The notes under the pieces: model-generated
The model's database searches: none
What the model was told of the DNA's origin: nothing
Seen by the model: the letters and a program-made list of their open reading frames with translations, nothing else
NCBI GenBank assembly: GCA_951406725.2
Contig: OX597815.1
Span: 69,564,001 to 69,628,000 of the forward strand
DNA: 64,000 nt
Origin: Octopus vulgaris
Lineage: Eukaryota
Reading direction: 5' to 3'
Program-made: the position numbers and the translations under genes
In this document: piece after piece, positions 1-55,525 of the stretch
Position numbering within the stretch: position 1 is the first letter of the stretch
Layout: each line of letters begins with the position of its first letter

Positions 1-845
1 CATTACATGTATTTTATACAGAGACAAGTAATTAAGTAATTGAACAATTATAAAAACAAACATGAAGAATTAAAATGAAACGAAGCTTACTACTACTCGT
101 TGTTGTTCCTTGCAGATATTTAATAACAAAAATCTCAGTCGAAAATATGATTAAAAAATATAAAACATTATTTTTCAAATATTCTCTTATGTAACTGAGT
201 GCGTGAGAAAATGCCGAGAACACGAGAAGCAAGCAAATAAATGTTACTGCAAGTCTACACAAGTCTACTGTAATGAATATAAAACAACAAACTGTACTAA
301 AATCTGTTCTGATTTCCCTGGAGTAACAAGCAATATAATGATTCGGAGTGTATTCGTTGCATTACATGAACAGCTCACGCAACGAAGAAAAGCATATCAC
401 GCAAAGAAAAACAGGAAATATATAGATTTTCCTCTAAAAATCATTGTAAAAAGTAAATTTTATGAAATATTTTAAATTAAAATAGGATACTGGAAAGGAA
501 GGAGGAAAGAAAAAATACAGCTTCAAGATACGAAACTAAATAGTTAATGTAGAAATAATACCTGCCTTGTGACGCAAGATATTTATTTTTACATATTATG
601 TCAAAGGCGAAAGATCTTCACCTAAAACTAACGACATCAACAACACATTGTAGTAAGCTAAACAAAACTAAGCTTATTTTAGGAAGTATTTCAGGATATT
701 TGGAGATTAAAATAACAGAAAAAAATGGAAGAAGATATTCAGAGAATTCAGGAATAAAATGTAAACAAGAATTTTATGGAGTTAATACAAGAAATCTGAG
801 CAAAAATCAGAAATAATGCTTCCTAATTTAAACAGCAATTTTGAG

Positions 846-2460: not shown

Positions 2461-2539
2461 AAATAATCTTTTTTTAACATAAATTTTTCTCTTGTATTTT
2501 CTTCATCTGGTGTTTCAGTCGAACCCTTGGGGTATCATG

Positions 2540-2825
2540 TAGGAGCAGCAGGCTACGGGTTCAATCCTATCATGTGGTATCTTGGACAAATGTTATTTTT
2601 GGTAGCCTCGGTTTAACCCACACCTTATAAGTGAAATTGGGTAGGCGGAAACTGTATAGAAGATGGTCAGATGGATTATGATAGTAATTCAAAAGGTACA
2701 GGCTGATCAGACACCGTGTTACACTGATTCTATATGAGGCTTACGGAATACTCAGCTACTTACACCGGTAATTCAAGAGTAGGTAATTCAGTAAATTGAA
2801 TCTTTATCGTCGAAACCGACGAAGA
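2540..2825 (+). mobile_element. Degraded SINE fragments
   Basis: B-box-like GGTTCAATCC followed by CTTGGACAAATG...GGAAACTG, similar to the SINE at 29545-30097. Confidence 0.5.
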
Positions 2826-3107
2826 AATATTATTCTGGAGTATTTATACTATGATATTCACCGATTTGTTAGATACGAAAGCGAATGCTGAACAAAATGA
2901 CTTGCAATATTTAGATTTGTCCAAGCTATGCGCTTTGTTTTACGTATCCAAAATGGCGCAAAGACTATAAAAGAGCGTTAATGAATACGGTGTCTTCGAT
3001 TTGGTCGATTAAACACTTTCTAATACAAAAGTTTTCGTTGTGGTTGTGCCTGCCAAAGAAATTAATATCTGACTAGACAGATAAAAGGAATAATGTAGGA
3101 GCTGCAA

Positions 3108-3138
<31 letters not shown>

Positions 3139-3605
3139 TTTATGTATGTATAAATACATATATAAATATACGTGTATATATATATATAGATGCTTATATA
3201 TGTACATGTACATATGTATATATATATTTATATATATACATGTGTGTGAATGTGTGTGAGTGTGTACTTGTATGTGATTGTTTGTATGTGAGCGTGTGTT
3301 TGTATATGTGTGTGCGTATGTTGATATGAAGGTCAATGTTAGACGACAGAAAGGAAAAAAAGACAGCTGTGACTGAGACATGATTTCATTTAAAAAGAAT
3401 TGCCTTAACTGTGTTCTGTTGTTTCTGGGTATTGAAAATACTCCATACATACATACATACATACATACATACATACATACATACATACATACATACATAC
3501 ATACATACATAAACACACACACGGGCGTGCACACACGTACGTGTGTATGTATGTAGTAATGTATGTATGTATGCATGTATGTATGTATGCATGTATGTAT
3601 ATGTG

Positions 3606-3870
3606 GAGGCGCATGGCTTACTGGTTAGAGTGCTGCACTCACGATTGCGAGATCGTGGGTTTGATTTCTAGACCGGGCATTGCGTTGTGTTCTTGACCAA
3701 AGAACTACATTTCATGTTGCTCTACGATCATTTCGTCAACCGACATGCAGTACACGGTGCACCTGTACAGGTAATGTGGATTAGTTGACGAGAGTGAGCT
3801 TATGTGTACACAAGCATTTGATCACTATAAACAAATCATGTGTGGTTGTTCGGCAAGAAATTTCAGAACC
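3606..3870 (+). mobile_element. tRNA-derived SINE
   Basis: GGAGGCGCATGGCTTACTGGTTAG (A box), GGGTTTGATTTC (B box), then GTGTTCTTGACCAA core. Confidence 0.75.
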
Positions 3871-4109
3871 CTCATACGTCACACACACACACATGAATAT
3901 ACAAACATATATATTAATATATTTATACACACACACACATACGTTAATATCAAAGAATAAAAATTAGTACTCAACACCACATTGATCGACAAATATCCTT
4001 TATTTGCTACTTAACAATGTTACCATTAGTTTCATGCTGAGAGAAAATTTCTTAACAATTATCAAGCCTTCCACGTGGGACGTAGACACTCGTTTCCCTC
4101 ATGGATGAG

Positions 4110-4276
4110 ATTACGCGAAACTACACGAGACTGTACGGGATTTGGGAATAAATAAATATACAACTCATAGGAGACAGCTTATAAGAAAACTGAGCCACTT
4201 GCACGTTAATTTCTAGAGCAGGCTGTTCCTTGATTGGATTAACTAGAACACTCGTCATCGTAATCGACGGAATGTC
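4110..4276 (+). mobile_element. SINE 3' segment
   Basis: GCACGTTAATTTCTAGAGCAGGCTGTTCC...CTCGTCATCGTAATCGACGGA matches the reverse complement of 9880-9960. Confidence 0.7.
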
Positions 4277-8872: not shown

Positions 8873-9160
8873 GGGGAAAGCGTGTGGTGTAATGGTTATG
8901 GTGTTGGGCTCACTATGATAAAAGTTGTGGGTTCAAATCCTGAATCGGGAGGTGCGTTGTGTCCTTAAGCAAGACACTTCATTTCACGTTGCACCCGTCC
9001 ACTCAGTCTATTTCTGCTGCAGCCCTCTCTCCTTTTAGCCGCAACACCTTAGGTGTGTTGCCGGGTTAAGAACGAAAGGCATGTGGGTTCGATTCGTGGC
9101 CCGGGGAGCAGGTTGTGTCCTTGAACCAGCCTCTTTATTATCCGTTGTTACTCAGCTGAA
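8873..9160 (+). mobile_element. Two tandem tRNA-derived SINE heads
   Basis: TGGTGTAATGG A box, GGTTCAAATCC B box, GTGTCCTTAAGCAAGACAC core; second B box GGTTCGATTC at ~9086. Confidence 0.7.
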
Positions 9161-9869: not shown

Positions 9870-10265
9870 CTTTTAACTGGCACTCTGTCGGTTACGACGA
9901 TGAGGGTTCCAGTTGATCCGATCAACGGAGCAGCCTGCTCGTGAAATTAACGTGAATGTGATTGAGCGCCCCACAGACACACGTAACCCTTCAGGTAGTT
10001 TTCAGGGAGATTCAATGTGACACAGAATGTGATAATTTGAATTACAGATACAACTCGTTTTTGCCAGCTAGACGGACTGGAGAAAGGTGAAAAAAAAGTG
10101 TCTTGCTCAAGGACTCAACGCACCGCCGAGAATCGAACTCACAACCTTACGATCGTGAGCTGAATACCCTAACCACGAGGTTCAGAGTCATAAATTGAAG
10201 TTATTCACGACATTACGATCACTTTAAGTCGAATACCGTAACCACTTAACTACGCATCTTCACAT
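9870..10265 (-). mobile_element. tRNA-derived SINE, near full length
   Basis: Minus strand: GGTTAGGGTATTCAGCTCACGATCGTAAGGTTGTGAGTTCGATTC head, CTTGAGCAAGACAC core, 3' segment as at 4110-4276. Confidence 0.8.
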
Positions 10266-15961: not shown

Positions 15962-17178
15962 GGTTGGACAAAATAATGGAAACACCTTAAAATTTTAAAC
16001 AAATTTATTTTAATATGGGGTAGTGATTACAGCTTGAATTCTACTAAGTATGGACTCGTGCAAAGTTTGAATTGTTTCCAAAGGAATTTTTGTCCATTCT
16101 TCAGCTAAAACAGTCTCCAGTTCTTGTAGTGATGATGGTAGAGGATATCGACTCCTTAACTGTTTTCCTAAGATAAACCATAAATGTTCAATTCTATCGA
16201 GATCTAGGGACTGTTGTAGCCAGTTAAGATGTTCAACTTCACTAGAATGTTCCTCGTGCCATTCAGTAACAACTTTGGCTGTGTGAATTGGTGCATTATC
16301 ATTCTGAAAGATTGCGTTTTCCTCCGAAACCATAGGGTGAATTTGATCAGATAAAATGCTTAAATATTCTTGACTATTAATTCTGCCATGAAGGGAAACC
16401 ATTGGGTCGGCGGATTTCCAAGATATGACGCCCCCCCCCACGATCATCACAGATCCTCCTCCATATTTAACAGTTGGGAGAAGGCAGTCTGGGTCAAATA
16501 CTTCTTTTGGCTGTCTCCACACGTATATTCGGTCGGTGGTCGGAAATAAGGTAAAGGATGACTCGTCCGAAAAAATAACACTCTTCCACTGCTCTAGGGA
16601 CCAATTCTGTAGATTTTTATTCCACTCTAAACGCTTTGCAACGTTTGTTTTTGAAAGTAGTGGTTTTCTGATTGCTGCCCTCCCGTGAAATCCGGCTTTG
16701 TTCAGCTCCTAGCGAACAGTTTTCGTGGAAACTGGGTTCTCGAGGTGATCATGAAGCCTTGCAGTAATTTTGGGAGCTGTACTTTCGTGATCCCTTCTAA
16801 CAATTCGCGTAAGAGTCCCTGTCTGAAAGTTTTAGTTTCCTTTCGGTGTTTTGTTTTGACGAGGAAGTTTTCTTCTTGTTCTCTCATTATTTTCAAGACT
16901 GTACTTCTTGATACACCAAACATTTCGGCTGTTTTCGTTACTCTGCCATACGAGCACCAACAATTTGACCTCTTTGAAAGTCCGATAGATCCGTCATTTT
17001 TATTACCTTTTTCTCATGATATCTGAAAAGAAACAGCAATATTAGCAAAACATATCAAGCAACACTAATAATAAATCAAAAAAAACATAAAAATAAACAA
17101 GCATTTGATGGTTTTATAGATATTTCAAAATTATGATGCTATGATGCTAGGTGTTTCCATTATTTCGTCCAACCCCTG
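15958..17178 (-). mobile_element. Tc1-like DNA transposon; transposase remnants at 16010-16522 and 16702-16923
   Basis: TIRs CAG(A/G)GGTTGGAC(A/G)AAATAATGGAAACACC; motifs TVKYGGGSVM, FQNDNAPIHTA, SLDLDRIEHLW; HTH FGVSRSTV. Confidence 0.92.
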
Positions 17179-19044: not shown

Positions 19045-21982
19045 ATGCCTGACTTGCACTCGTTCGTCCAACACCTTCAATCCCTCCTTAGCCGCTACCT
19101 CGCGTTCTTCCCCCCACAATGTTCCGCACCTGCTATAAAACTTTCCCGCTTGCTTTTCAAGAAAACTCGCCATTCAAGCCATCTTTCCTTTCTTAGCCGT
19201 TGCCTCCGCCATCATGTCACACCCCGCGGTTTCCTCTTGAAGTTCCACGCTACCCCCTATTCCTCCCCCTTCATCGAACCCACCCTCGCTCGTACCTCCC
19301 GCTCCCTCCTCCGCGCCACCATCCGCTCCACCCGCCCCCTCCTTGACTCCCTCGACCATCAACTTCCCCAGGCCTACCTCCTTCTCTCCGCCCTCTGCCC
19401 TCCACTCTTCACCCAACCTATCCTCCGCTTCATTCTTAATCTCAACCACCAACTCTACAACTACCTCACACACACAAAAAACAAAAAACTCCACCTCCTC
19501 CTCAACCCCTCACCCCCTTCCCCATCCTCCCCCACTGCTTCCCCCCTCCTTCGCACCTACCCCCCCCTTCCACGGACCCCCCCCCCTTCCACGGACCCCC
19601 CCACCGTGACCTTCCTACGCCTAACCCATCTTCACCCAACCACCCCTACCCTCCCCTTCACACCCCTGCACCCCCTCTGCATGCCCCTAGTCCTCCCACC
19701 ACCCCGCTTCCTCGCGCTGTTGTCACTATACCCCCAACCTCCCCCTCTCCGCCGCCGAGCGCTCTCTCCTCAGTAAGGGTCTCCGCTTCACGCCACTCAC
19801 GCGCCACTGTGATGAGTTCGAGACTCGGGCGGACGTCAACCTGTTCCTGCGCCGCCTCAAACTTTGCGCATACTACCACGCGTCCCCGCAGCGTCACAAC
19901 AATCAGGATTGCCTTTTGGAGCTGGGGCGTCGTCCATCCATCTGGACGCCGCCCCCAGGCCTTTTCAGTAGCCTAGATTCGTTTGTACATGACTGCAACG
20001 CTTTGGTCCACCGTTTCAACTTTGAACCAAGACCCCGCCGAGCCAACCTCACTCGGGCCGAATCCATTGCCCTTCGCCACCTCCGCCGACGTAATGACAT
20101 TGTCATCAAACCGGCGGACAAAGGCGGGGCAGTGGTAGTGTGACGCGCGGACCTATACAGGGAGGAAGCGCTCAACCAGCTTCAAAATCCCCTCTTCTAT
20201 CGCCTCCTCCCCTCCGATCCCACCTCCTCCTACCATCCGCGACCTCATCTCCTCCTCCGCTCCCCCCCCCCCCCACCGCCACCAACCTCATCGTCCGCAC
20301 ACCCCGCACCTCCACCATCTACTTCCTTCCCAAGATCCATAAACCCTCTAATCCTGGCCGTCCCATAGTCTCTGCCTGTAATTGCCCCACTGAACTCATC
20401 TCCCTATACCTCGACCGCATCCTGTCCCCCTTAGTCGCAGCCCTCCCATCCCACATACACGACACCAACCACGCCTTCCGTCTCTTCAATTCCTTTTCCT
20501 TCCCTTCCAGCCCCTCACACCTCCTCTTCACATTAGATGTAAAATCCCTGTACACAGTGATTCCCCACAATGACGGTCTCCTAGCCCTCCAACACTTCCT
20601 CGACCGTCGTCCCGACCCCACCCCTAGCACCCCCACCCTTCTCCGCTTGGCTGAGCTCGTCCTCACCCTCAATTGCTTCACGTTCGCCGGGGAAACGTAC
20701 CAACAGATGTCCGGGGTCGCGATGGGAACTAGGATGGACCCCAATTTCGCCAATCTCTTTCTTGGCTACATTGAGGCCCAAGTGTTCTCCCAGTTCTCTG
20801 GGCCGACCCCCGAACTATACGGTCGCTATATCGACGACTGCATAGGTGCCACCTCCCTTTCCCGTGAACTTCTCTGCCAATTCATCTCTTTCCTTTCCAA
20901 CTTTCACCCCTCTCTTCAATTCACCTCCACCATCTCCAACACCTCTGTCAACTTCCTTGACATCTCTCTCCGCATCGATCACCCCTCCAACTCTCTCACC
21001 ACCACCGCCTTCTTTAAACCTACGGATTCCCACCTCTATCTCAACTTCTCTTCCTCCCACCCCTTCCACACCAAACGAGCCATCCCCTACTCCCAGTTCC
21101 TCCGCCTCCGACGTTTGTGCAGCCGCGACCAGGATTTCGAGACCCAATCTCAATACCTGGCCCGCATGTTCAGACTCCGAGGTTACCCACCCATACTCCT
21201 CTCTGATGCCCTCACCCGCGCCCGTCGCATCGACCGCACCACCGCCCTGTCTCCTTCCCAACGGCCACCCCCCCAACCGCACCCCCCCCCTCATTTTCCA
21301 CCCCTCTACCCTACCCCTTCGTCGCAAGATACTACGTGCCTTCCGTCGCCTCCAGCTTGATCCCACCACCCGCCCCATTTTCCCTAACCCACCCCTGTCC
21401 TCCTTCAAACGAGCCCGCAATCTGCGTGACCTCCTGGTCCACAGCACCCTCTCTCCTTCCCCCTCAGCCCCACACGGATCATTCCCTTGCTCTAGATCCC
21501 GCTGCAACACTTGCCCCTTCATCACCAACACCACCGCTGTCACCGGCTCCAACCGGCATACTGTACGCATTGGGCACTCTTTTACGTGCACCTCGTCTGG
21601 CCTTATTTACTGCATTAAATGCAACCTATGCGGAATGCTGTATGTAGGACAGACGGGACGCCGGTTGTCCGACCGATTCACAGAACATTTGAGGGACGTT
21701 CGCCTACACTCTTTTTCTCCCGTCGCACGCCACTTCCGCTCGGCCGGCCATTCCCTAGATGACATCTCAGTGTTTGGTCTCACTCCCCACAATGGTCGCC
21801 CACTTTCCAGGCTCCACTTGGAGCAACGCTACATCTTCACCCTACAAACTACTACCCCACACGGACTTAACACAGCCCCCCCTCTTGAGGTCCTCTTCTT
21901 TTTTTTTGTTTCCCGGATACACCACCCACACACACACACCTACCTACCTCCCACACGCCTGTTCACATACACACATACGTAG
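19045..21982 (+). pseudogene. PLE polyprotein (RT, Cys-rich linker, GIY-YIG endonuclease), disrupted
   Basis: HLSFLSRC...TPRG N-terminus; IKPADKGGAVVV; LPKIHK...GRPIVS; LDVKSLYT; GVAMGT; RYIDD; CSRSRCNTC; LIYCIKC...YVGQTGRRLSDRFTEH...EQRYI...HGLN; several frameshifts and TGA at 20141. Confidence 0.92.
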
Positions 21983-48110: not shown

Positions 48111-49692
48111 TTATTATTATTATTATTATTATTATTCTATGTTTGACTTTTGCTTTACATTTGCACAAGCTGGCTCCAAGTCTCACCCAGAGACCTCAAG
48201 AGACAACAAGTTGGAGGTTCATGTTAGTGTTATGCCTAGGGTGCCATATATTTGGTTTTGTACTTAGTGTTGCACTAGTGAATGCCTAAAAAATTATATG
48301 AAAATTATGTTTGTTTTAAAACTTGAGATTACATAGAAAGTATTTTGCGTAGGATATGAGCAGTTCCCACGAGCACTATCGTTTGAATTTCTGCCATTTT
48401 GGGGTTTCCTGGTATCTGAGTTAGGTAGCAGTCAGCCCCTTTTGCTATCATTCCCAGGGCAACTATGACAACAGGTATTGTTTTAGTCTTCAGGTTCCAC
48501 GTTTTGCTGATTTCTATTTCCAGATCTTTATATTTGCTCAGCTTCTGGTAGGTCTTGACAGATACGTTTATATCGATTGGGACAATCATATCAATGTAGA
48601 GGCATGTTTTTCGTCTGAAGTCTTTTACTATGATGTTTGGCCTATTCGCGTCTATCTTTCTGTCAGTTTGAATGGGGAAGTTCCAGAGGAGTGAGATGTG
48701 GTCATTTTCAAGCACTGGAGGTGGTTTCTGTCCCCACCAGTTTTTATCATGGGGCAAGTCCAGGCTTTTACAAATTACCCAGTGAATATATTGTGTAGAT
48801 CTATCATGCCTGTTGAGATACTCTGCAGTCGCAAGAAGACTGCACATAGAGACAATATGATCAATGGTTTCATTTTGTTGGGCTACTGCCGTTCTTTAAT
48901 ATGTTGGCCTGGTAGTTCCTTGTAGGTAGGTATTGATCTTGAGCTGCTATGATAAACCCTTCTGTTTCAGATTTTAAGCCAGAGGCCATTAGCCATTAAT
49001 GGGTCAGGGCTTTGTCAACATCTGCATTATTCACTCGCTTTGGGTATTTGCCATTGAGAGGTTTTTCTTGCCATTTGTCATTCAGAATATCTAAGGCAGC
49101 AGTTTTAGCACGGATTTTCATGCGCTTAGCTTTTTCTGTGCTTGTTTCTTGTGTGTCTAATTCCGAAATTTGTTGTATTCGGAATTCACTTAGATATTCC
49201 TATGCCTGTTTTGTTACTGAGTATGACGCTTTCTTGTTTTCATGTTTTGAGACAAGTTTTAACATCCAGTCCTCAGAGTTTTTCAGGTAGGCGTCTTGGC
49301 CAATTGTAGCAATCTTCATTGTTATTGCCAGTTGTAAAAGTCCACGGTTTCCCTCTTTTCTTGGCAGATAAAGTTGTTCTAGATCGGCCTTAGGGTGGTG
49401 TATTCTATGCATTGTCAACAGTTTTCGTATTTTTCTGTCAAGATTACATATTTCAGTAATTGACCAGTTAACAGTTAACGATATTGAAACTGTAAGTCAC
49501 GACTGGTATGGATAACGCATTGATCGCTTCGATCCTGTTTCTCGCATTCAGCTCTGTCTTGAGTATTGCTCTTACTCTGCGATAACATTCTCTCCTGATC
49601 CTTTCCTTCATCTCTGAATGCCTTATTCCATCCCCTTCAATTACCCCTAGGTACTTGTAGCTCTCCGCTGGGTCTAACTCTTTTATGACATT
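48111..49692 (-). mobile_element. R4/Dong LINE 3' portion with (TAA)n tail
   Basis: YKYLG, HHPKADLEQLYLPRKEG, YLNRHD, NRPNIIVKD...IDM.VP, KLSKYKDL; (TAA)n on the minus strand at 48111-48136. Confidence 0.92.
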
Positions 49693-50880
49693 CGTGCTGC
49701 ACCTCTCAGTCAGGGATGCAAGAGTTCTGCGAAATGCCAATAACATCCGAAGACATACGGGACGTGATGACGAACTGCACAAGAGAGAAGTCTCCGGAGC
49801 TTTATTTTCATATGCCAGACTTGTTCGGTGGTATCTTGGCAAATGTCTACCACAGCTGGCAGCAGAACAGGAGAATTCCTAGTGCTGTGAGCTGTGGAGT
49901 GGTGGTGCTGTTGAGGAAGGACCCAAACAAGGGGGACAGAATCGATAATTTTAGGCCTATAACTCTGCTGAATGCAGATTATAAGATTTTGGCTAAGGTG
50001 TTTGCCAAGAGGTGGGCGCTCGTCATCGATAAGTTGGTTGGGGGCGCGCAGACATGCGCTATCCCAAATATAATTATCCACAACCTCCACCTCACGCGTT
50101 ACATCATAGAAAATGTGGGTAAGGAGCCTGATATGGGTGGAACCCTGATCAATTTGGATCAATCGAACGAATTTAATAGGGTCGATCACCAATACCAGAA
50201 GGCTGTTCTCGCGGCAGCGGGTTTCGGTACCGTTTTAAGAGGCCGGATCGCTGCAATGTACAGCGACATCAGCTGGGTGGCCAAAGTAAATGTCCACCAA
50301 TCGGAATCGTTTAGCATCGCTTGTTCAGTCTGTCAAGGATGCCCATTCTCGCTTCTTCCGTAGGTATTGGCTCTCGAGCCATTACGTCGGAAGCTGGACG
50401 TTTCAAGGGGCATACCACGTGATCTAGGATGCGGTAGTTTCGTGTCGGCTTACGCATCACCATAATAGTGTCGGACATCTCGGAAATCGAGGTGGCTGAC
50501 ACTGCTCTAAGGGAGTACGAAGAGGTGACAAGAGCAAAGATCACCCAGGAGAAGTCGGTGGGCCTGCAGCTCGGCATCTGGAGAGGCAGGACCACACCAA
50601 CCAAACAGCGTTGTAGGGCGCTGGACGGAAGGACTGGTTAAATTGCTCGGCGTCTGGTTTGATCCAGACCTCCAGGTGGACAAGAACTGAGGAGAGGTGA
50701 TGAGCAGAGTAGTCAATCCCACCCAGAAATGGGCAGAGAGGAAGCTGTCCTTGGGCAAGCGGAGGTGACGAATGCGTACATCGCTTCCGTCATCTACTAC
50801 CGCCTGGCCGTCGTCCCTTACTCCAATTCGTGCCTGATAAAGATGGAGCACTTGCTCTTCCACTTTCTATGGAAGGGGCG
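49693..50880 (+). mobile_element. Tx1/L1-clade LINE internal RT fragment
   Basis: NFRPITLLNADYKILAK, LDQSNEFNRVDH, SVCQGCPFS, LLGVWF, FHFLWKG. Confidence 0.88.
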
Positions 50881-51889
50881 TCTGTGTCGTTTTTGGGGTG
50901 GAGTGACCTATATCTAGTTGGCAACTTCCTTGTCTTTCTGTCTAAGCTGTTTAGCTCGTCTAATGTCCATGCGATTACCCCTGCTCCATATCTAAGGAGT
51001 GAAGCCACCCAGGTGTTGATAGCTTCGATCTTATTCCGTCCGTTTAATTTCGACTTAAGGATCAGTCTCAGCCTGCGCAAGTACTCCACCTTAAATTTTT
51101 CTGTCATTTCTCTCTCAATTAATTTATCGATTTCCAAAATTCGCAAGTACTTATAGCCTATTTCTTTTATCTGCTTCATAACCTCCCCCGACGGTATCGA
51201 TAGCCCGTCCATGCATTTGACTAACGCACCACACTTTCTCAGTCCGAACCCCATTCTGAAAGCACTGAAAGTATACATCGTATCAACGAGGAAACTGACT
51301 TGGGATTCATCTTTACCATAAAGTTTGAGATCATCCATGAATAACAAATGGTTGACTTTTTGTTGGCGGCTTTTGAATGCATACCCAGCTTTTGCTTTCT
51401 TCAGTATCAGTGTTAGTGGTATCAAGAACAGTACAAAGATCAGTGGAGACACGCAGTCCCCTTGGAAGTTGCTCCTCCTGATTTCTACTGTCCCTAAACT
51501 TCTTCCGTATGCTGTTAGGTCCGTCCTCCAATTCGCCATACTTTTTCCAAGCAATCGCTCAACATTCGATGCAATACTAAATAGGTTCATACATTCCATT
51601 ATCCAAGAGTGTGAGATCATGTCGTAAGCCTTACGATAGTCGTTCCATAACATGGCTAAATTACTTTTCCTCCTCTTGCAGTCTCTAAATACAGTTTTGT
51701 CTATCAAGAGTTGATCCTTGATACCTCTGCACTTACGCTTGCAACCCTTCTGCTCATGTGACAGGACTCCATTTTTTCTAGATTTTCGTACATTGACTCT
51801 GCGAGTGGTCCAGTCAATAATTTCCACATAAGTGGCGGACAGGATATCAGCCAGTAATTGTCTACCGTATTGCCTTTTTCGATGTTTAT
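50881..51889 (-). mobile_element. Second R4/Dong-family RT fragment
   Basis: EQKGC...[41 protein letters not shown]; its 5' side abuts (TAA/CAA)n. Confidence 0.92.
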
Positions 51890-51938
51890 TTTATTATTAT
51901 TGTTGTTGTTGTTGCTGTTGTTGTTGTTGTTGTTGTTA

Positions 51939-52908: not shown

Positions 52909-54329
52909 CGCATATATACATGTAGAGAGATAGAGAGGTGGAGATTTCGTGCACGTACAAACATACATCCACACACATTTCTAAAGCAGACAAATAAGCT
53001 GTATCACCACCAACACCAATACTATTTTAGCAATATACTCAATGAGCCAATGAGCGAACCTCTATGGGGTTACTTAATTTGCAAGACATAGATGCTGAAT
53101 CTCCCTCAAATCAGACCTTACAGTCTTACAAAGGACATATTATAGTGTCCGATATGGCAAAATAAATGAATAAGTAAAACAAGGTAATCATGGCTGGACT
53201 AACTTTGATCGATCAGACTACCTCTGCTCAGTCAAAGCTGACCTAGAGCTAAGCACACTTGATCCAACATCCAGGATCCCATAGCAGGAAGGAGAAAGGG
53301 CTATACCAGTACTCAGCTTTTACTCATTTTCAGCTGAGTAGAATGGAACAATGTGAAATGAATTGCCTTGCTTAAGGACACAATGCACCGCCCGGTCCAA
53401 GAATCGAACCAGCAGTCTTATGATCACGAGTCCATGAGCCCTCGTTGGATTGAACACTACAACACAAAACTACCAGAATGAGAGTCTTACAGCACGACCA
53501 AACATGAGACTTTCCTTGATGACATCTTTCCATTACATGAGTTACTAAATTTAAGCTTCTTTTTTTCCAGTATTTTCTACAACGGAATTTTCTCTCTGTT
53601 CGTCATTTAAATTTCTTTATTTATTTATTCATTCATTTCTTTTCTTCTGTTTTTTTATGATATTTACTAGGCTTTTGTATTTCTTTCCCTTTTCCTATCT
53701 ATAATTTCATTCCGATATTTTCTTTATTCACAAAAACAGAAGTAAATAGATTCAGTGTTATAAAAAAATTACTAATAGTTGTATATAGTAATTGAGTAAC
53801 ACATTTTTTAAAAAAGGAATTGCTATGTTTATATATAGAGAGATCTAAAAATCTGAAGTAGCTAGAAAGAGCATAAGAAGTACTTTAATAGAGTACATTC
53901 TTACATTCTTGATTTAAATATTATATATATATTCTATAAAAAAATAAATACTGATTCGTCGCTTCTGTCTGGTGTCTCTGAATTGGAGTAGTTTCTTAAA
54001 GTGTCTACGTTGTGCTGTTAGTGAAAATAGTTCCACTGCGATAAAGTGTTTAGATTTCCATAGCAATGAAGTGATTATATTGGCTTGTGAGATTAATTCA
54101 TTCGTTTCTCAACCCTCAATAATTTCAGTCCTGTCCAGTGTTATTTGAATTAACACGAAAAATATTTTTATTGTTGTGCTTTAGATTTTTTTGTAGCACT
54201 ATTCTTTTTCTGCAATTGCTGATTATCGTTTTTGAAGTTTGAATAAATTTTACCTCTCTTCAATCATATGATGAAATGCAAAGTATAAAAAAAAAACAAA
54301 AAAAAAAACAGAACAAATTTATCTGATAA

Positions 54330-54543
54330 TACAGTTCTATATTTAAGAGATGAGGAATTATGTACATTATCTACATTGTCCTCATCTTGTTTGTTGTTAG
54401 CACGTTTCAGCTGATATACCCTCCGCCTTCATCAGGTGTCTTGGGGAAATTTCGAACTGGGGTTCTCATTCCTAAGGTATTTTTCGATTTTATAAGTGTT
54501 ATTATTATTATTATTCGTATTATTATTATTATTATTATTATCA

Positions 54544-54592
<49 letters not shown>

Positions 54593-54832
54593 CTTAACCA
54601 CTACGCCATATACCCACGGGCATATGGCGTAGTGGTTCTAGGCAGTGACCTGAATAATAATAATAACAACAACAACAACAATATCGAAAAATACCTTAGG
54701 AATGAGAACCCAGGTTCGAAATTTCCCCAAGACACTTCAAGAAAGCTGTAGGGTATATCAGCCGAAACGTTGTGTTAACAACAAGCAAGATGAGGACAAA
54801 TATCCGTCAAATGTAAATAATGTAAATAATAT
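54330..54832. mobile_element. Palindromic non-autonomous element: central tRNA-like A-box hairpin, (AAT)n spacers and two HHR-bearing arms
   Basis: 54361-54488 is inverted relative to 54683-54830; central hairpin 54596-54637; flanking direct repeat AAATTTATCTGA(T/C)AA at 54315-54329 and 54833-54847. Confidence 0.8.
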
Positions 54833-55099
54833 AAATTTATCTGACAACTTAATATATGAGTTCTAAGGGAAATATGACAATACAGAATAGAGTGCGATAA
54901 AAAATGGAAACAAGATACCTTTTTATTGGGTCAGTTCAACCAATCCAGCAAATTTGAAAATGCATTTAAAACAATTTCTTCTATTTTCTTTCTAGATTCT
55001 ATTACTGTCCCCTTACAAAATTTTAGTCTCCTTTCAAGTTTATATATACATGAGACACCTCCTCTCTTCTTAACTCACCCCAGGGAATCACGTTCCTTC

Positions 55100-55525
55100 C
55101 TGGTTTCTAACTCTTCGGCCGAATTTTTCTCATTGGCTACTTCTCTTTCTCACTCACTATGCTTTTCTCTTACTTTTGATGAGGAACTAACATCCGAAAC
55201 GTTGTGACTCTTTCTCCTATAAAAGCGTCAAAGTAATATCGTATTTGTTAAAACTTGTCCTTCATGCGTTGCCTTTTTACTGTTCACTGCATTTACACCA
55301 CATACACACACACTCACACACACAAAGTTATATAATAATAATTATAATAAATATATAAATATATATAAACTTAGAATCTTCGGTGAAACGCGAAGTAGAT
55401 AAAGCTATAAATAACTGCGTGTAGAATAATGGGAGAGACAATGTTTAACAAATACGGCATTTGCATGACGTTTCAATGAAAAGAGAGACATAACGTTTTG
55501 GAGTTAGTCCTTTATCAGAAAAAGT
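55100..55525. mobile_element. Convergent pair of related pLTR-like ends with decayed HHR motifs
   Basis: Plus strand TTGATGA GGA actaaca TCC GAAAC GTT at ~55176; minus strand CTGATAA AGGA ctaac TCC AAAAC GTT at ~55490-55518; both followed by CGTCA...CGTATTTGTTAAA. Confidence 0.6.

Follow-up and report, generated by a model that had tools for sequence, protein, structure and literature searches.

The element at positions 54315..54847 of the 64,000-nucleotide stretch of Octopus vulgaris DNA analysed here (the window) is probably a decayed head-to-head pair of pseudo-LTRs (pLTRs) of a Penelope-like element (PLE), whose pLTR carries a tRNA-derived head with A and B boxes, likely a Pol III promoter, and whose paired arms likely arose by priming from both strands of the target. 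In the mechanism that we propose, the A/B boxes would drive RNAs starting ~7 nt before the head, and the PLE protein would cut an AT-rich site with nicks ~11-15 bp apart, one on either strand. From each 3'-OH, priming would then take place at one of two internal RNA sites ~35 nt apart, and the two cDNAs would be joined at their 3' ends, either via the self-complementary leader or by microhomology with one arm shortened. The short units would thus be non-coding by-products of the same masters as the long copies, and not a separate lineage.

A sequence-only reading of this DNA had described a hairpin with outward-reading heads at the centre of the element, and both its coordinates and its arms proved correct: positions 54596-54637 form a 42-nt hairpin with 20-bp arms, one mismatch and a 2-nt AC centre. 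Its predicted fold (-28.9 kcal/mol, z -7.5) was equalled by none of 200 shuffles. On either side, the inverted arms 54425-54515 and 54656-54746 are 86% complementary across 91 nt, and the arms can be aligned over the entire unit. Their outer ends are unequal, with the left arm (minus strand) extending ~35 nt beyond the right one. The repeats that flank the unit (54315-54329 and 54833-54847), previously read as a 15-bp target duplication, are indeed identical at 14 of the 15 positions. The features are as follows:

54315..54329, no strand: left target-site duplication, 15 bp (based on alignment and on the family-wide duplication statistics)
54330..54491, minus strand: left arm, long-form tail of the PLE pLTR, reaching the outer RT start site
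Within 54330..54491, minus strand: left-arm ORF start, ATG at 54469-54467, frameshifted, with deletions of 1, 3 and 12 nt (based on continuity with the PLE ORF)
54401..54440, minus strand: left minimal type I hammerhead, CTGATGA core (54435-54429) intact, stems II and I damaged
54492..54592, minus strand: left-arm (AAT)n tract, expanded
54593..54615, minus strand: left head remnant, A box at 54608-54598, remainder including the B box deleted
54611..54622, no strand: junction, 5-bp inverted repeat with AC centre, which pre-exists in the parent PLE directly before the head
54618..54652, plus strand: right head remnant, A box (54625-54635) fused to the 3' end of the head, anticodon arm and B box deleted
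54653..54679, plus strand: right-arm (AAT)n/(AAC)n tract
54680..54830, plus strand: right arm, short-form tail of the PLE pLTR (inner RT start site)
Within 54680..54830, plus strand: right-arm open frame from ATG 54702, the N-terminus of the PLE ORF
54731..54776, plus strand: right minimal hammerhead, with intact GAAAC-GTT and stem I but a mutated core (54736-54742)
After 54771, plus strand, in the right hammerhead: predicted cleavage position in intact copies
54833..54847, no strand: right target-site duplication, one mismatch

The two arms are damaged at different sites, as had been noticed before. Only the left arm retains an intact hammerhead core (54429-54435, minus strand) and only the right arm an intact stem II, GAAAC and stem I, and the composite hammerhead that had been assembled from both arms turned out to be the majority sequence of the other copies. 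The B box, correctly reported as absent, is missing from both heads through a different deletion in each arm. Because the B boxes are lost and the hammerheads are broken at different places, this copy is predicted to be dead, with no evident function. Rfam and ARAGORN gave no tRNA or hammerhead matches, either in the 64-kb window or in a complete head, and in a protein comparison the N-terminal frame of this copy matched the homolog P0003 over 7 residues only.

The origin of the unit became apparent from locus L027, where the match to an arm adjoins an RT fragment. A search with this fragment resulted in 29 further loci, 25 of which contain the head and/or the tail; by our reading, these follow the ORF end directly and in sense orientation at 22 of the 29. 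The order of the element is RT, an endonuclease-type motif (Y.IPCSC..YKGET), stop codon, 29-nt spacer, head, (AAT)n and tail, and at 10 of 30 loci the tail continues in frame into the ORF. The majority frame encodes 825 aa, with RT motifs and with the Y.IPCSC..YKGET motif in the C-terminal part (aa 718-732). Its start ATG is located 23 nt inside the tail, and the tail codes for the first ~52 codons of this ORF for RT and a putative GIY-YIG endonuclease. The pLTR consists of a 7-nt leader, the 75-nt tRNA-like head, (AAT)n and a ~180-nt coding tail containing the hammerhead. The unit is the pLTR of a PLE with RT and a putative GIY-YIG endonuclease, residing in the same genome, and not a stand-alone SINE. 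This answers positively whether the arm corresponds to a PLE end, a check proposed in the sequence-only reading, and it removes the head as a SINE-specific part, because the head belongs to the autonomous PLE's own pLTR.

Pfam lends the domains of the protein modest support. The 569-aa open frame of L196 matched Pfam RVT_1 with an E-value of 2.7e-6, which is under the cut-off, and close homologs were over it; for Pfam GIY-YIG, only the homolog P0069 passed the cut-off, P0003 gave an E-value of 0.23, and the family's own copies gave no match. The closest homologs of the PLE protein are 55-68% identical, and a homolog at 55% identity opens with a matching TPD.G...PKRCVNN segment. Altogether, 2744 homologs, mostly unnamed, passed an E-value of 1e-30, and a PDB search returned RT matches only, all of them weak.

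The parent also contains the centre of the palindrome. An inverted repeat with an AC centre, made up of the final 7 nt of the spacer and the initial 5 nt of the head, is present at 164 exact spacer-linked junctions; since the AC centre occurs at the spacer/head junction of the parent, the palindrome centre is templated by the parent. AT or GC centres were considered as a sign of heteroduplex repair, an idea that we rejected because CpG decay yields AT in ORF-linked copies too. Partial tandems (ORF end, head, tail and ORF start) are found at L230, L319 and L353. One PLE fragment (L207, L208 and L215) lies within a 6.5-kb segment that is duplicated at ~98.5% identity and adjoins an intact two-ORF LINE.

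The genome searched comprises 2.8 Gb in 227 contigs and offers at least 1440 candidate places for the right arm. Counts of exact 26-mers were 5561 (tail), 1149 (head), 660 (ORF end plus spacer) and 55 (5' part of the ORF), with 0 for controls. Short pLTR units hence outnumber ORF ends by ~8:1 (5561 vs 660), and copies diverge from their majority by ~5-7%. The exact head-to-head junction occurs 107 times genome-wide (control 0), nearly always with a 2-nt centre. In three runs of raw short RNA reads from a related organism, the fold-back 7 nt before the head was present in 328-407 reads per run, and the same two tail ends appeared as well. Chance or an assembly artefact can be dismissed on the basis of the 107 junctions and of the fold-back in those raw reads. 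Direct target duplications of 10-17 bp were found around 40 of 60 pairs, compared with 6 of 600 mismatched flank pairs (score >=10), and around none of 13 apparent monomers. The palindrome with its target duplications is therefore recurrent, a point that the sequence-only reading had singled out for checking.

The majority head is collinear with the genome's own tRNA genes; the best matches, among 20 of the 34 listed tRNA genes (covering six amino acids), were two tRNA-Arg genes with z-scores of 10.0 and 9.6. A strict B box is present in 53 of 94 head copies, these being the first 94 of 100 listed out of 1149, so that the complete tRNA-like A+B head looked for in other copies does exist. The majority sequence keeps the A and B boxes and has lost the cloverleaf fold, and Rfam and ARAGORN miss this head. 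By the same pattern, A+B boxes were found in none of 56 distant PLE loci (the longer matches of 79, 29-48% identical and many of them incomplete).

Upstream of the 94 head copies we found an inverted partner in 55 cases, a short fold-back in a further 10, plain flank in 9 and spacer/ORF sequence in 20. Seventy-four of these copies stop no more than 9 nt upstream of the head, where ~1% would be expected from the loss rate along the ORF. Similarly, none of the 64 head-bearing arms at tail-selected loci extends past position -7, and 32 start at -7 to 0; the loss rate between the tail and the ORF end is ~14 times that along the ORF. The simplest reading of this sharp boundary would be an RNA 5' end at about -7 to 0 before the head, and we infer that Pol III transcribes from the A/B boxes. 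Counting against this, only a few of the long copies have their start at the head (L237 and L330); the majority start within the tail or continue from an ORF end upstream.

On its sense strand, the majority element does not contain a single run of four Ts (T4), although this absence is not significant when tested with a second-order Markov null (P 0.34). For the CDS, 2.9 such runs would be expected (synonymous-codon shuffle, P 0.028; third-position null, P 0.002). A second PLE family of the same genome, with a higher T content, has 10 T4 runs in 1155 nt, and the 56 distant PLE loci together have 401 against 276 expected; four of these 56, without a tRNA head, are also T4-free in the RT-EN stretch. 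One distant PLE (L439) has no T4 within positions 2501-4153, that is, in 1653 nt at 28% T with 7.2 expected, and does have T4 runs outside this region. TCTTT is able to terminate Pol III transcripts of mammalian SINEs. The single TCTTT of the CDS is located ~75 nt beyond the tail end, and junctions cluster near it: 9 of 30 fall at +67..80 in a first set, and in a new one, which includes duplicated events, 4 of 21 lie at +71..72. We consider the absence of T4 and the clustering of junctions at TCTTT as hints of Pol III, not as proof. In three unstranded RNA-seq runs of the related organism, the tail was covered 1000-2600 deep and the 5' part of the ORF ~5-20 deep. Both strands were covered alike in these runs and no start peak was present at the head, indicating that the depth mirrors copy number.

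It is conceivable, albeit on balance doubtful, that the autonomous element itself is a Pol III unit, with the head driving not only short pLTR RNAs whose 3' ends lie near the single TCTTT but also an uncapped ~2.9-kb T4-free RNA encoding the 825-aa RT/endonuclease. If so, a coding retrotransposon and its SINE-like by-products would share one promoter, and the coding RNA would be a rare protein-coding Pol III transcript.

We find it unlikely that no Pol III promoter is used at all. The head would then be a dead tRNA-SINE relic in the 3' UTR of the PLE, only long Pol II RNAs would serve as templates, and the sharp boundary would reflect an RT stop, or a point of annealing, at the small hairpin that precedes the head. 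In agreement with this, the hairpin is already present in the parent, short and ORF-linked copies have the same two haplotypes at like frequency, the three partial tandems mentioned above read through the head, and the unstranded RNA-seq data of the related organism lack a start peak. However, forward arms also end at 0 to -4 where their partner is not the hairpin, and further points against it are the ~14-fold higher loss rate between tail and ORF end, the A and B boxes kept in a majority sequence whose cloverleaf is lost, and a sense strand lacking T4.

Less likely still is that the short copies constitute a true SINE, with masters of their own that Pol III transcribes at dispersed loci and that the PLE protein mobilises in trans. 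The 8:1 excess of short units would fit such a SINE, and so would the many short copies with complete A+B heads and the slightly lower divergence of short copies (5.9% vs 6.9%). In a small first sample, a haplotype also appeared to be enriched in short copies, but this enrichment was gone when 58 short copies were compared with 50 ORF-linked ones: no variant was enriched (lowest P 0.06; haplotypes, P 0.38 and 0.80), and the same two haplotypes were present at similar frequency in both groups. Moreover, the autonomous element carries the head. Two properties of SINEs, a 3' end in common with a LINE and a target duplication around the monomer, were looked for; the 3' end of the unit is the start of the PLE ORF, and none of the 13 monomers had a duplication. 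The candidate SINE of the sequence-only reading thus had no variants of its own in this comparison. The short units appear SINE-like in behaviour, and a separate lineage is unsupported in samples of this small size (58 vs 50).

For the formation of the pairs, 83 distinct head-to-head pairs were available: 73 combine a long and a short arm, 9 are short/short and 1 is long/long. The arm ends fall into two clusters, and the one-sided tail of 30-40 bp typical of PLEs is present in 73 of 83 pairs. Rare variants were common to both arms of an insertion 21 times, as opposed to 3.1 expected by permutation, and none of 54 pairs mixes the two linked haplotypes (8.8 expected), which argues that a single RNA, or a single source, gave rise to both arms. 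In 8 of 37 pairs, including the copy at 54315..54847, the arms differ at a non-CpG diagnostic site in the hammerhead core; barring recurrent mutation, these mismatches count against a single template. As inferred from TPRT, the outward tails together with the direct duplication point to two 3'-OH ends, each priming on RNA. Taken together, we favour a model in which both nicked strands serve as primers and the products are joined at the self-complementary 5' end or at microhomologies. There is precedent in vitro: according to the accessible parts of PMC11167929, the Poseidon protein of the anole cuts and extends both strands, and its two internal starting points on the RNA delimit the 'tail'.

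Alternatively, the first cDNA might fold back at the terminal hairpin and copy itself, with the endonuclease trimming one end at the inner site. The rare variants and the haplotype common to the two arms would be expected from such a snap-back, the perfect junction is seen 107 times, and Craig 2021, as far as its accessible text goes, attributes the tail to endonuclease resolution (PMC8557442). Furthermore, in one short/short pair (L013; G000:C4:2111554-2114704) the flank duplication is inverted, as snap-back into the target would give. We nevertheless regard this route as improbable for the family, because the template arm cannot be shorter than its copy, whereas the arm bearing the templated AC centre is the long one in 10 and the short one in 11 of 21 pairs, and the short one in the copy at 54315..54847; in addition, direct duplications with both tails pointing outward would have the geometry of two primed 3'-OH ends. 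The hairpin-primed second-strand synthesis suggested earlier is disfavoured for the same reason, although snap-back may apply to the short/short minority (9 of 83 pairs). For the previously described unit of tRNA head plus pLTR/hammerhead tail, then, the parts, the link to a PLE and the recurrence have held up, and the SINE status and the hairpin priming have not.

Other types of junction were also observed. At L317, L325-L328, L336, L341, L354 and L360-L365, a stretch of the ORF 50-120 nt in is followed by the head or tail of another unit in tandem, and two of these tandem junctions fall exactly at the leader before the head; they suggest template jumps from an RNA 5' end. At L002, L029, L293, L308 and L312, an (AAT)n stretch connects tail-only arms with the 3' ends of other repeats, which suggests that the arms inserted into AAT tracts or were joined there.

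The majority hammerhead motif is of the minimal type I, with a short stem I, the core, an extra A, a G-C pair opening stem II and a GUU cleavage triplet, and with a palindromic ACGU at the position of stem III. The accessible text of PMC4209133 describes this minimal form, whose motifs cleave poorly, and as dimers. The unit had been described as a double-hammerhead element; its two motifs lie on opposite strands, so no dimer can form within one transcript. In an alignment of 20 rows, one of which (L286) is in the wrong orientation, 91% of the cells were paired and no covariation exceeded that of shuffles. The motif is located within the PLE coding sequence. Similar cores with other stem II sequences are present after the ORF in 35 of the 56 distant PLE loci, by a loose pattern that admits chance matches.

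Inverted copies, the tail, partial tandems and a hammerhead are standard features of PLEs (accessible parts of PMC8557442 and PMC8969392). Like canonical EN+ PLEs such as Anolis Poseidon, the octopus element has one ORF encoding RT plus, at its C-terminus, a putative GIY-YIG-type domain, forms partial tandems, has an inverted 5'-truncated copy and a 30-40 bp tail at one end, and inserts into AT-rich targets (PMC11167929, PMC8557442 and PMC4209133, as far as accessible); as described for anole Poseidon in the available part of PMC11167929, a minimal type I hammerhead overlaps the ORF start. Unlike canonical EN+ PLEs, its pLTR opens with a tRNA-derived A/B-box head followed by (AAT)n, and the bulk of its insertions consists of solo pLTR pairs whose 5' boundary is fixed. 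The full-text literature searched, which covered main texts and few subscription papers, did not reveal any account of a PLE whose pLTR has a tRNA-type head.

The order of a Pol III-type promoter and then a hammerhead in a short repeat is shared with Schistosoma Sm-alpha and Sj-alpha. These repeats form tandem arrays in which the promoter is left 3' of the cleavage site, and the accessible part of the source demonstrates no place for them in an autonomous PLE (PMC6765202), whereas the octopus units are head-to-head and have a minimal hammerhead inside the coding sequence of the PLE. The TRIMp3 elements Cassandra, Helenus and Ajax likewise have a captured small-RNA Pol III promoter in their terminal repeat, with the boxes kept and the fold lost; according to the text available, they are non-autonomous LTR elements with PBS/PPT and duplications of 4-5 bp (PMC10886601), unlike the PLE pLTR described here, whose coding element also bears the head. 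Animal non-LTR retrozymes and short non-autonomous PLEs are similarly short, non-coding, related to pLTRs and equipped with a type I hammerhead, but the accessible sources describe retrozymes as head-to-tail arrays and mention no tRNA-type head (PMC8557442, PMC6685494 and bioRxiv 10.64898/2026.07.22.740005). The dominant form in this family is head-to-head; a few tandem arrays exist (C2:16238316-16238942 and L363). With tRNA-derived SINEs the units have in common the A/B-box head, the length of ~280 nt, the thousands of copies and a 3' part shared with an autonomous element. They differ from such SINEs in that the partner is a PLE and not a LINE, the 3' end lacks a simple repeat, the entire unit including the head is the partner's own end, and the duplication flanks the dimer rather than the monomer.

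Three tRNA-derived SINEs of octopus were reportedly described in a 1994 paper, and the family may already be catalogued as SINE or Penelope; pLTR units of this kind are prone to annotation as SINEs. The accessible portion of the main text of a 2026 octopus repeat annotation does not mention hammerheads (PMC13282606). The origin of the inverted structures and of the one-sided tail of PLEs is described as an open question in the parts available of PMC8557442 and PMC11167929. With its thousands of small, uniform insertions and a strand marker in the AC centre, the family gives access to PLE integration in vivo, and what the first counts speak for is priming by both nicked strands, with sibling or identical RNAs as templates. 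A tRNA-type promoter inside a PLE terminal repeat would also be the PLE counterpart of Cassandra and Helenus.

The window contains several other elements. A second minimal hammerhead-like motif with a TGATGA core and a short stem II (GAAACGTTGTG) is present on the plus strand at 55176-55207, 330 bp downstream and with unrelated flanks, and is probably a remnant of another PLE family. A further hammerhead-like motif (CTGAGGA ... GAAAC) is located at ~1865-1897 on the minus strand. The C-rich open frame of 420 aa at 20098-21357 (plus strand) has a YFLPKIHK-type motif as in PLE RTs and looks like a different, strongly C-skewed PLE. The open frames at 16013-16708 (minus strand), 49689-50360 (plus strand) and 50793-51890 (minus strand) resemble what we take to be a Tc1 transposase and two LINE RT fragments. 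Finally, tRNA-like heads with B boxes, followed by a common GTTGTGTCCTT-like segment, are found at 8880-8970, 9040-9120, 10090-10190 and 53370-53460, and these are likely ordinary SINE families.
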